Positions 42,701 through 45,700 of a stretch of DNA of 64,000 bases are shown here, piece by piece. The DNA is taken from the NCBI RefSeq assembly GCF_965641715.1, contig NZ_OZ282453.1. One strand, written 5' to 3'. Each line of letters starts with the position of its first letter. The stretch's first letter is position 1. This stretch comes from Escherichia coli. Lineage in GTDB: Bacteria; Pseudomonadota; Gammaproteobacteria; Enterobacterales; Enterobacteriaceae. Position numbers: made by a program.

Positions 42701-45700
42701 TGCTTAACCTGTCTCACCGTTCTGGTGAAGATTCGTTCCCCGCACTCTGCATCTCTGCTTTGCATACCTGCCGATGTTATACCCATCTCGGCGCTTCTCA
42801 GGATTCAAGAGCTGGTTACAGTTACTGAGGACTGAACAAGGGCGCTCTTGTAAAAACAAGAGTTTTCTCGTGGTTTCGCCGAACTGTCACACTTACGTTC
42901 GGTTATGTGCTTAATAATGTTATGAAAAAGAAACCGGTTGCGCAGTTGGAGCGTCAGCATTCACTGCTGGAAAATCCATGTGCTTATGGGTTGTTATCGC
43001 AGTTCCAGGCTGCGATAGTCGTTAACTGTTTTACACTTAATAAAATAATTTGAGGTTCGCTATGTCTGACGACATGTCTATGGGTTTGCCTTCGTCAGCG
43101 GGCGAACACGGTGTACTACGCTCCATGCAGGAGGTTGCAATGAGCTCCCAGGAAGCCAGCAAGATGCTGCGTACTTACAATATTGCCTGGTGGGGCAATA
43201 ACTACTATGACGTTAACGAGCTGGGCCACATCAGCGTGTGCCCGGACCCGGACGTCCCGGAAGCTCGCGTCGATCTCGCGCAGTTAGTGAAAACTCGTGA
43301 AGCACAGGGCCAGCGTCTGCCTGCACTGTTCTGTTTCCCACAGATCCTGCAGCACCGTTTGCGTTCCATTAACGCCGCGTTCAAACGTGCGCGGGAATCC
43401 TACGGCTATAACGGCGATTACTTCCTTGTTTATCCGATCAAAGTTAACCAGCACCGTCGCGTGATTGAGTCCCTGATTCATTCGGGCGAACCGCTGGGTC
43501 TGGAAGCCGGTTCCAAAGCCGAGTTGATGGCAGTGCTGGCACATGCTGGCATGACCCGTAGCGTCATCGTCTGCAACGGTTATAAAGACCGCGAATATAT
43601 CCGCCTGGCTTTAATTGGCGAGAAGATGGGGCACAAGGTCTATCTGGTCATTGAGAAGATGTCAGAAATCGCCATTGTGCTGGATGAAGCAGAACGTCTG
43701 AATGTCGTTCCTCGTCTGGGCGTGCGTGCACGTCTGGCTTCGCAGGGCTCGGGTAAATGGCAGTCTTCCGGCGGGGAAAAATCGAAGTTCGGCCTGGCTG
43801 CGACTCAGGTACTGCAACTGGTTGAAACGCTGCGTGAAGCTGGGCGTCTCGACAGCCTGCAACTACTGCACTTCCACCTCGGTTCGCAGATGGCGAATAT
43901 TCGCGATATCGCCACGGGCGTTCGTGAATCCGCGCGTTTCTATGTGGAACTGCACAAGCTGGGCGTCAATATTCAGTGCTTCGACGTCGGCGGCGGTCTG
44001 GGCGTGGACTATGAAGGCACCCGTTCGCAGTCTGACTGCTCCGTAAACTATGGCCTCAATGAATACGCCAACAACATCATCTGGGCGATTGGTGATGCGT
44101 GTGAAGAAAATGGTCTGCCGCATCCGACGGTAATCACCGAATCGGGTCGTGCGGTGACTGCGCATCACACCGTGCTGGTGTCGAATATCATCGGCGTGGA
44201 ACGTAACGAATACACGGTGCCGACTGCGCCCGCAGAAGATGCGCCGCGTGCATTGCAAAGCATGTGGGAAACCTGGCAGGAGATGCACGAACCGGGAACT
44301 CGCCGTTCTTTGCGTGAATGGTTACACGACAGCCAGATGGATCTGCACGACATTCATATCGGCTACTCTTCCGGCACCTTTAGCCTGCAAGAACGCGCAT
44401 GGGCTGAGCAGCTTTATTTGAGCATGTGCCATGAAGTGCAAAAGCAGCTGGATCCGCAAAACCGTGCTCATCGTCCGATTATCGACGAGCTGCAGGAACG
44501 TATGGCGGACAAAATGTACGTCAACTTCTCGCTGTTCCAGTCGATGCCGGATGCGTGGGGGATCGACCAGTTGTTCCCGGTTCTGCCGCTGGAAGGGCTG
44601 GATCAAGTGCCGGAACGCCGCGCTGTGCTGCTGGATATTACCTGTGACTCCGACGGTGCTATCGACCACTATATTGATGGTGATGGTATTGCCACGACAA
44701 TGCCTATGCCGGAGTACGATCCAGAGAATCCGCCGATGCTCGGTTTCTTTATGGTCGGCGCATATCAGGAGATCCTCGGCAACATGCACAACCTGTTCGG
44801 TGATACCGAAGCGGTTGACGTGTTCGTCTTCCCTGACGGTAGTGTAGAAGTGGAACTGTCTGACGAAGGCGATACCGTGGCGGACATGCTGCAATATGTA
44901 CAGCTCGATCCGAAAACGCTGTTAACTCAGTTCCGTGATCAAGTGAAGAAAACCGATCTTGATGCTGAACTGCAACAACAGTTCCTTGAAGAGTTCGAGG
45001 CAGGTTTGTACGGTTATACCTATCTTGAAGATGAATAATTAAGATTATTCTGCTGGCGGGTCGATTTATTTACGTAAATCGGTCCGCTTTCTTTTTATAT
45101 ATTCTTAAAAATAATTTAGCTGCTTTTCTTATTAAATAATCTCCCTACAATCGCTGCATTAATTAAATGCAGAGGGAACGGTTATGAAAAAATGGAAAGT
45201 ACGTAGCGCGTTGGTGGCATTAATCGTGCTGCTGGCCGGTTGTTCCAGTAATGCGCAGTATAATAGCAGTGCATCGGGCAATGTCGGCACCGCCTGGGGT
45301 GGGGATGTGCACTCAACGGTTCAGGGCGTATCTGCTGAGCGAGCCTGGCGCGATCCGGCGGAGATGATCGTTATTAGTTATTCGACTAATGTTCCTTCCG
45401 GCTACGACCGCGTTTATAGCATTCGTATTAACGAACTGGAATATGCTATTCGCGATGGTAATTTTAATTCTCTACCTATTACGCGTGTTTATGATTCATC
45501 CAATAATGAACCACGCTATATTGTCCATGCCAGAGTCGGAATGAATTATCAATTATATGTCCGTAATTACAGTCGTAACACCAACTACGAGATCGTTGCT
45601 ACGGTTGATGGCCTGGATGTGCTGAACGGCAAGCAAGGTTCGCTGAATAACAACGGCTATATTGTGAATGCCGGAGATTCTTTAGCGATTAAAGGATTCC

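Follow-up and report, generated by a model that had tools for sequence, protein, structure and literature searches.

yqgB as a probable cis-acting leader reading frame of the speA mRNA in enteric bacteria

In a 64,000-nucleotide stretch of Escherichia coli DNA (NCBI RefSeq assembly GCF_965641715.1, contig NZ_OZ282453.1; hereafter the window), the small open reading frame (ORF) yqgB lies directly upstream of speA, the gene for the biosynthetic arginine decarboxylase. We propose that, on the yqgG-yqgB-speA(B) mRNA, yqgB probably serves as a leader ORF acting in cis, and that its translation, not its peptide, has been selected. The ORF itself is not new: it is annotated, it belongs to curated protein families, and Adams et al. 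2021 (PMC7815308) had already proposed it as an upstream ORF (uORF) of speA. What we add is comparative evidence that the RNA and its translation, rather than the peptide, are what is selected.

The yqgB frame and its end points

The ORF spans 43 codons on the plus strand, from an ATG at 42922-42924 to a TGA at 43051-43053, in a neighborhood whose minus strand carries galP and metK and whose plus strand carries speA (43062-45038 in the ORF listing and RefSeq annotation) and speB; the leader features described below also lie on the plus strand unless stated otherwise. An earlier note on this DNA, made from the sequence alone, had reported a 43-codon ORF at 42922-43053 and matched it to YqgB. 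Its coordinates are correct, its peptide is identical to our translation, and the name is borne out by RefSeq, which calls the product "acid stress response protein YqgB" (WP_001297406.1), and by profile hidden Markov model matches to the NCBIfam equivalog family NF033844 (90.1 bits, cut-off 35) and to Pfam PF11036 (113.3 bits, cut-off 24). In both peptide and position the ORF is identical to yqgB (b2939) of E. coli K-12, a gene already known, and the layout of the YqgB family, about 43 codons directly 5' of speA, is found here in the same arrangement that RefSeq gives. The note had also set the ORF 9 nt before the speA ATG: the two genes do adjoin, but 9 is the difference between the coordinates, and the gap from the yqgB stop to the ATG at 43062 is 8 nt (43054-43061). 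The stop overlaps the speA Shine-Dalgarno (SD) sequence, read from the sequence as GAGG at 43052-43055, to give UGAGG. Begun at GTG 42907, the same frame extends to 48 aa, and yqgB is probably missing from the ORF track because this falls below the 60-aa default cut-off of the ORF listing.

Of 5426 complete E. coli genomes, 5425 contain the 821-bp region between metK and speA at ≥95% identity, and RefSeq annotates yqgD, yqgG, yqgB and speA in this region or locus, with yqgB in 5425 of the 5426. Protein searches with YqgB reached few relatives: a word-indexed search returned 17 matches, all Escherichia-type sequences, and an exhaustive HMMER search gave 14 at E < 1e-3. We therefore built the comparison on DNA, fetching speA 5' regions from 80 species genomes by way of the SpeA N-terminus. 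The 78 loci with enough upstream sequence come from Enterobacteriaceae and Erwiniaceae; the genera sampled include Escherichia, Salmonella, Citrobacter, Klebsiella, Enterobacter, Kluyvera, Buttiauxella, Cedecea, Mangrovibacter, Erwinia, Pantoea, Mixta and others.

Relative to the speA ATG, a uORF beginning ATGAAnnnGAAACC starts at -140 or -139 in 60/60 Enterobacteriaceae loci, and its frame is open in every one; the conservation in related genomes that the earlier note had named as a check thus holds across genera. All 60 uORFs stop at either of two fixed positions, one on each side of the speA start. In 35, the TGA lies inside the speA SD and the uORF ends 8 nt before the ATG, as in E. coli; the other 25 use a TGA within ATGTCTGA (43067-43069 in the window, where it is not the stop of the E. 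coli uORF) and end 8 nt into speA. The uORF shares the speA frame in none of the 60. Small indels in the last few codons switch one stop for the other even between sister taxa, with cases in two Citrobacter youngae strains and two Silvania species (pairs L020 versus L011 and L023 versus L024), by a +2 insertion in locus L033 and by a -4 deletion in L007. In five loci (L021, L037, L026, L038 and L039), 12-48 codons have been inserted behind the conserved core, and the frame stays open to the speA start in all of them. Among the 19 Erwiniaceae loci without the canonical ATG, 18 have a frame of 37-115 codons ending at the ATGTCTGA (+8) stop; in the Pantoea agglomerans group the frame ends at this stop though its sequence is unrelated to YqgB.

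Stop avoidance is specific to this frame. The 57 distinct Enterobacteriaceae sequences, in which the uORF ATG is invariant, contain 0 in-frame stops, compared with 10.0 ± 2.6 expected from independent column shuffles (0/2000 shuffles). The same shuffles reveal no avoidance in the other two frames (187 versus 192 and 82 versus 86.5). A 43-codon ORF alone is unremarkable by chance; the yqgB ORF is real because its frame is conserved in 60/60 loci, avoids stops in a frame-specific manner, matches curated families and is annotated in RefSeq.

Two observations concern individual uORF sequences. In two Enterobacter genomes, an insertion of 47-48 codons resembling the enterobacterial repetitive intergenic consensus (ERIC) and containing GUACGCUCCUGGG lies inside the uORF (L026:2232-2508 and L038:2237-2508), and the frame remains open to the stop in ATGTCTGA. 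Two E. coli/Shigella YqgB variants, P0005 and P0008, have a short out-of-frame stretch after which the frame is restored (e.g. YGSVIAVPAAIVV) and the C-terminus is normal. These variants fit selection on the end point of the frame, and could also be sequencing errors.

Constraint on the leader RNA and the speA start

Constraint statistics for codons 1-38 of the 57 distinct sequences lack a protein-coding signature: entropy at codon positions 1/2/3 is 0.60/0.66/0.57, and the Nei-Gojobori ratio of non-synonymous to synonymous differences per site (pN/pS) is 0.99, while the other two frames give 0.91 and 0.63. The conserved blocks (GGG TTG TTA TCG, and GCG ATA GTA GTC AAC TGT TTT) are frozen at all three codon positions. 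The middle and the C-terminal tail are free to vary, peptide lengths lie between 43 and 91 aa, and the codons adjoining the stop are the most variable part of the uORF. Across the 60 peptides we found no conserved run of Arg or other diagnostic codons. A protected frame with a neutral peptide is as expected of an ORF that is translated through and whose product is unimportant, and this comparison suggests that the RNA and the process of translating it, but not the peptide, are under selection. Frame conservation across genera, fixed stops at the speA start and stop avoidance alongside a neutral peptide all agree with the suggestion in the earlier note that yqgB may act as a leader or upstream ORF for speA.

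RNAalifold, applied to 54 sequences from -150 to +80 around the speA ATG, predicts a series of hairpins in which 97.9% of cells are paired, compared with 31-56% when the 3' partners are slid. Two of these hairpins lie inside yqgB. P1 (42942-42983) joins 42942-42945 with 42980-42983 around an inner hairpin (42956-42959 with 42965-42968), and three of its pairs show two-sided compensatory changes; in 9 sequences, for example, codon 8 changes from CAG to CGG (non-synonymous) together with codon 20 from GCT to GCC (synonymous). P2 (42989-43028; -14.3 kcal/mol, z -3.48) spans codons 23-36, and its arms are the conserved "GLLS" and "AIVVN" peptide blocks. Within Enterobacteriaceae P2 is nearly invariant. 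In Erwinia, it is rebuilt at the same position from other bases (e.g. UUGCUGCAGG/CCUGUAGCGG), with a wholly different encoded peptide and a similar predicted stability (-14.2 to -15.2 kcal/mol, z -3.1 to -4.2). In an ungapped alignment of 48 sequences, two-sided changes occur in 8 of the 11 pairs of P2 and in 54 cells, compared with 21.4 ± 4.5 in shuffles (0/500), and the covariation score is 0.307 versus 0.06-0.17 when slid.

P2 is directly followed, still inside the ORF, by a U-rich tract (UGUUUUAC) and by the 9-mer motif UGUUUUACA (43027-43035), identified in cross-genus alignments. No convincing antiterminator was found, and the one alternative hairpin tried is insignificant in E. coli (z -0.78). 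Most genera carry a second UGUUUUACA copy just upstream of the uORF start (about 42907-42918), which is degenerate in E. coli and persists in Pantoea despite the unrelated uORF sequence there.

The third hairpin, P3 (43055-43107), encloses the first speA AUG (AUG1, at 43062) and reaches through codons 1-15. The last G of the SD plus GUUCGC pairs with GCGAAC (speA codons 15-16), and CUGACGA pairs with UCGUCAG; folding of 43052-43111 gives -21.2 kcal/mol and a z of -1.96. P3 is predicted in nearly all species folded, and its 14 pairs are 98.7% paired across the 54 sequences, with variation that is mostly of the wobble type and standard pairs nearly always kept. At the SD itself, TGAGGTTCGC is invariant in the 54-sequence alignment and mostly kept in further loci apart from single substitutions, except in L078. 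Independent support for RNA constraint near P3 comes from speA, where the synonymous sites of codons 1-26 are close to frozen (normalized entropy 0.10-0.25, 55-67% invariant), compared with a synonymous entropy of about 0.6 and 0-2% invariant sites in codons 51-250. Meydan et al. 2019 likewise remarked on this early-speA synonymous conservation. The placement of the speA AUG inside a conserved predicted hairpin also agrees with a leader role for yqgB. The predicted energy needed to open the region from -18 to +12 is 4.5 kcal/mol at the yqgB start, 7.9 at the yqgG start, 8.3 at speA AUG1 and 12.2 at speA Met27, making the yqgB start the most accessible initiation site predicted on the leader.

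Two further pairings were considered and rejected. A hairpin of the form GUUCGUC-AGCN-GGCGAAC (speA codons 10-16) could compete with P3 but is insignificant in E. coli, at -6 kcal/mol and a z of -0.78; it is the minimum free energy (MFE) fold in the Pantoea group. A long-range helix between uORF codons 6-7 and speA codons 22-24, proposed by RNAalifold, comprises 2 nearly invariant pairs that lack two-sided changes.

Translation, termination and competing accounts of yqgB

Published data place transcription termination around the ORF. Adams et al. validated Rho-dependent premature termination in the speA 5' untranslated region (UTR), and their supplement lists a Rho-dependent 3' end flagged "uORF" at K-12 coordinate 3085854 (Rho score 3.09). 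With the conversion window = 43062 + (3085911 - K-12 coordinate), this end falls at 43119, 57 nt into speA. Their supplementary file 2 also gives a Rho-termination region at K-12 3086055 on the minus strand (score 3.69, p 8.7e-20), which converts to 42918 on the plus strand of the window, four bases 5' of the yqgB ATG. With its position 12 nt past the base of P3, the Term-seq 3' end at 43119 would fit P3 forming in vivo and blocking 3' trimming. Adams et al. count yqgB-speA among nine uncharacterized candidate uORF pairs, and their preprint reads the transcript as yqgG-yqgB-speAB.

Ribosome occupancy, which the earlier note had proposed as a second check, is supported in part: INRI-seq detected the yqgB start codon in vitro, in-vivo Ribo-RET gave no yqgB signal, and Adams et al., with reference to Hemm 2008, count the ORF as "experimentally validated". 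Comparative support for its translation comes from the frame-specific lack of stops and the invariant ATG. An N-terminomics supplement contains no YqgB or YqgG entry, and engineering and proteoform papers that mention speA contain nothing on the leader.

A 2026 study (PMC13159126) deleted the whole yqgB ORF from Salmonella by allelic exchange. The deletion lowered speA and speB mRNA, arginine decarboxylase, agmatinase and spermidine, and added putrescine or spermidine reduced the extra killing of the mutant by colistin. The text of that study yielded no complementation test of the deletion. Its authors regard the YqgB protein as druggable, with the aim of restoring colistin activity, and report binding of ranitidine to recombinant YqgB by surface plasmon resonance (SPR).

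We infer a dependence of speA on yqgB translation, and each causal step in it, from the anatomy of the leader, the constraint on frame and RNA, and the published Rho-dependent termination. Ribosomes would load at the A-rich, weakly structured yqgB start, as its predicted accessibility suggests, and while translating would unwind P1 and P2 inside the ORF, two structures for which covariation argues. They would then terminate at the UGA inside the speA SD or, in other genera, at the UGA in AUGUCUGA. Termination at either point would leave open the 5' arm of P3, which is otherwise predicted to bury the first speA AUG, and initiation at speA could then follow by termination-reinitiation or make use of the site while it is transiently open. 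Ribosome cover on the leader would also limit Rho-dependent termination there and in the first 57 nt of speA, and yqgB may contribute that cover. Removal of yqgB would then lower speA/speB expression and polyamines in cis. Such a cis loss would account for the acid sensitivity and the colistin sensitization without a role for the YqgB peptide. In a more speculative extension, the Met27 start of speA, just past P3, may mean that yqgB translation favors the longer SpeA-74 isoform.

This arrangement has precedents. In translationally coupled pairs and re-initiation uORFs, the upstream stop lies at or inside the downstream ribosome-binding site, which is masked by structure. The yqgB-speA pair is similar in that the yqgB stop overlaps the speA SD or speA codons 2-3, the peptide is unconstrained and the speA AUG sits in a predicted -21 kcal/mol hairpin; it differs in that the uORF also holds two conserved hairpins. 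The pyrBI leader is a 44-codon ORF that runs through an attenuator hairpin and U-rich tract and ends near the structural gene, with an irrelevant peptide. yqgB is of similar length, also runs through a hairpin and a U-rich tract and ends close to its gene. It differs from pyrBI in that neither a nucleotide-sensitive pause nor an antiterminator was identified, and Adams et al. report no 3' end at P2.

Several observations weigh against this account of yqgB. In vivo, Ribo-RET has a peak at the annotated speA start and none at yqgB. Since AUG1 can thus be initiated independently, coupling cannot be strictly obligatory, a point of difference from the coupled pairs above. At the RNA level, the ungapped P2 alignment was built with the structure in mind and covers few independent lineages. 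A P2 covariance model matches the Erwinia copies weakly (E 0.15-4) and with gaps, which is why the explicit alignment was used, at a risk of bias. P3 shows no two-sided compensatory changes among the 54 sequences, its z-score of -1.96 is modest, and three Erwinia sequences have a C-A mismatch in its lower stem. Finally, codons 1-8 and 31-38 of yqgB have pN/pS values of 0.34-0.39, so that peptide and RNA constraint are inseparable there.

The best-surviving competitor, which we nonetheless regard as unlikely, is that YqgB is a trans-acting small protein of an acid or envelope stress response and that its proximity to speA reflects only co-expression. Its name in RefSeq and NCBIfam, "acid stress response protein", derives from a deletion phenotype of Hobbs et al. 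2010, as cited in PMC13159126, and the "experimentally validated" status that Adams et al. give the ORF also speaks for it. The SPR binding of ranitidine would also suit such a protein, as would conservation at the amino-acid level of the N-terminal MKKKPVAQ and of an AIVVNCFT block. Yet the pN/pS of 0.99 resembles that of out-of-frame controls, the conserved residues coincide with covarying RNA helices, and both the sequence and the length of the middle and tail are free. The ORF and its end point persist in Erwinia and Pantoea, where another peptide has taken the place of YqgB. The phenotypes on record correspond to reduced speA/speB expression, with no trans-complementation described, and over-expression of YqgB in an arrest-peptide screen elicited an aggregation-type heat-shock response.

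Somewhat less probable still is that yqgB encodes a sequence-specific sensor or arrest peptide of the type of SpeFL (which responds to ornithine), MdtU (to spermidine) or TnaC, on which a polyamine-pathway metabolite would stall the ribosome and so control Rho before speA. The polyamine pathway does offer precedents. SpeFL is a conserved ornithine-sensing arrest peptide that binds ornithine in the exit tunnel. Like speFL before speF, yqgB precedes the gene of a polyamine-biosynthesis decarboxylase as a leader ORF, and Rho is involved; unlike SpeFL, YqgB lacks peptide-level selection, and over-expression in the screen, which used no candidate ligand, gave the heat-shock response rather than the cold-shock-like response typical of arrest. 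A second relative is mdtU-mdtJI, in which, according to Adams et al. (PMC7815308), the uORF mdtU controls Rho-dependent premature termination of a polyamine-related operon; the same paper lists yqgB-speA beside mdtU-type uORFs. Both combine a small uORF, a long 5' UTR, Rho-dependent 3' ends just downstream and polyamine metabolism. For yqgB, however, the C-terminus is the least conserved part of the ORF. An AIVVNCF(T/A) block 5-10 codons before the stop is conserved, and C-F-(T/A) is kept in frame even in Erwinia, as an arrest peptide might require. Against this, the block is frozen at synonymous sites too, which P2 and the UGUUUUACA motif largely explain, the stop-adjoining codons vary most, insertions of 12-48 codons are tolerated between block and stop, and there is no overall purifying selection on amino acids.

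Least probable of all is that the region is a non-coding structured RNA, for instance an attenuator or an element that binds a protein or ligand, and that the ORF is incidental. Nucleotide-level conservation, several supported helices, the U-rich tract after P2 and the missing coding signature would suit such an RNA, but at variable columns stops are avoided in this frame only. Indels and insertions leave the frame open, with its end always at the speA start; all 57 distinct Enterobacteriaceae sequences keep the start codon, at which initiation is seen in vitro; and Rfam 15 has no covariance-model match up to E = 1 on either strand of 42000-43400.

The wider speA leader and its implications

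The probable speA-leader promoter, with -35 TTGCAA at 42527-42532, an 18-nt spacer and -10 TATAAA at 42551-42556, has both hexamers conserved across 29 genus-level sequences, and was not flagged at 42527-42556 by a simple promoter scan. The transcription start is probably at about 42564, the position at which the forward cloning primer of Adams et al. for the "speA 5' UTR" begins. By these primer coordinates, the leader is about 498 nt long (42564-43061) and carries yqgG, a terminator-like hairpin and yqgB. Across genera it is a mosaic of conserved blocks, and among 75 loci measured, most have an intergenic length of 780-950 nt (range 633-959). The one site that the promoter scan placed inside yqgB (43022-43049) was rejected, as it would leave a leader of about 6 nt and no SD. 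A sigma-54 site in a paper that mentions yqgB is located 5 kb away in endA and is irrelevant here.

The first leader ORF, yqgG (42685-42828, 47 aa), is annotated in RefSeq, matches Pfam PF23505, and was found by Weaver et al. 2019 through initiation-complex ribosome profiling and confirmed as a tagged protein. In 66 loci, Erwiniaceae included, an ORF of 35-57 codons follows a conserved GGAGGTGA anchor as its counterpart. The pN/pS of yqgG is 0.61, with 0 in-frame stops compared with 7.5 ± 2.0 expected. Inside yqgG, a very strongly conserved block, CCUGCCGAUGUUAUACCCAUCUCGGCGCUUCUCAGGAUUC (42766-42806), encodes a conserved 17-residue peptide tail, and the MFE model of the leader places it in a hairpin. 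Between yqgG and yqgB, a terminator scan identified a terminator-like hairpin, GCUCUUG...CAAGAG followed by UUUUCUCGUGG (42844-42873). The hairpin itself (42844-42863) begins 16 nt after the end of yqgG, folding of 42840-42872 gives -11.5 kcal/mol and a z of -4.04, and across genera the stem shows compensatory changes and the loops vary, with an invariant UUUUCUCGUGG tail. To judge by sequence, yqgG and this hairpin together look like an attenuator; Adams et al. report no Term-seq 3' end at the hairpin.

Just downstream of P3, an internal speA start consists, in the sequence, of the perfect SD AGGAGGT (43129-43135) and the ATG at 43140 that encodes Met27 (feature 43129-43142). According to Meydan et al. 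2019 this start yields the shorter, cytoplasmic SpeA-70, and INRI-seq confirmed it.

At the 5' side, yqgD (42323-42574, plus strand) and yqgC (42571-42786, minus strand) overlap the conserved metK/speA promoter blocks and the leader. Weaver et al. 2019 found neither ribosome density nor a tagged protein for the antisense yqgC, neither ORF matches a Pfam/NCBIfam family where tested, and both calls may be spurious. A conserved block at 42365-42440 near the divergent metK, with 90-93% mean column identity across genera, is presumably the metK promoter/operator region. Between speA and speB, a 247-aa lipoprotein ORF (MKKWKVRSALVALIVLLAGCSS...) lies at 45184-45927, most of which is covered by the RefSeq 243-aa "lipoprotein" WP_000758914.1. 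The full 1-kb speA-speB spacer occurs in 3550 of 5426 complete E. coli genomes, and is thus a common presence/absence polymorphism inside the "speAB operon".

Our analysis questions the names given to YqgB and the 2026 drug-target claim. "Acid stress response" goes back to a deletion phenotype that would also follow from a cis effect on speA. The PF11036 label "Virulence promoting factor" appears to trace to yqgB of Bacillus thuringiensis (Fedhila et al. 2004, on yqgB and yqfZ), a paper that PMC13159126 cites for the enterobacterial gene; the label is probably a gene-name collision with an unrelated B. thuringiensis gene.

If a cis-acting leader role for yqgB is correct, the phenotypes of yqgB mutants reflect lower speA/speB expression, and inhibitor screens against the YqgB peptide are aimed at the wrong target. 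More tentatively, yqgB may be no stress protein at all but the ribosome on-ramp of a structured leader of about 500 nt, with two uORFs and at least four hairpins. By opening P3 it might set the balance between envelope-targeted SpeA-74 and cytoplasmic SpeA-70, whose Met27 start would be independent of it, and gate Rho, in which case the mutant phenotypes and the drug-target claim would come down to cis effects on polyamines. Taken together, the evidence suggests that arginine decarboxylase in enteric bacteria has a large, conserved control region made up of several parts.

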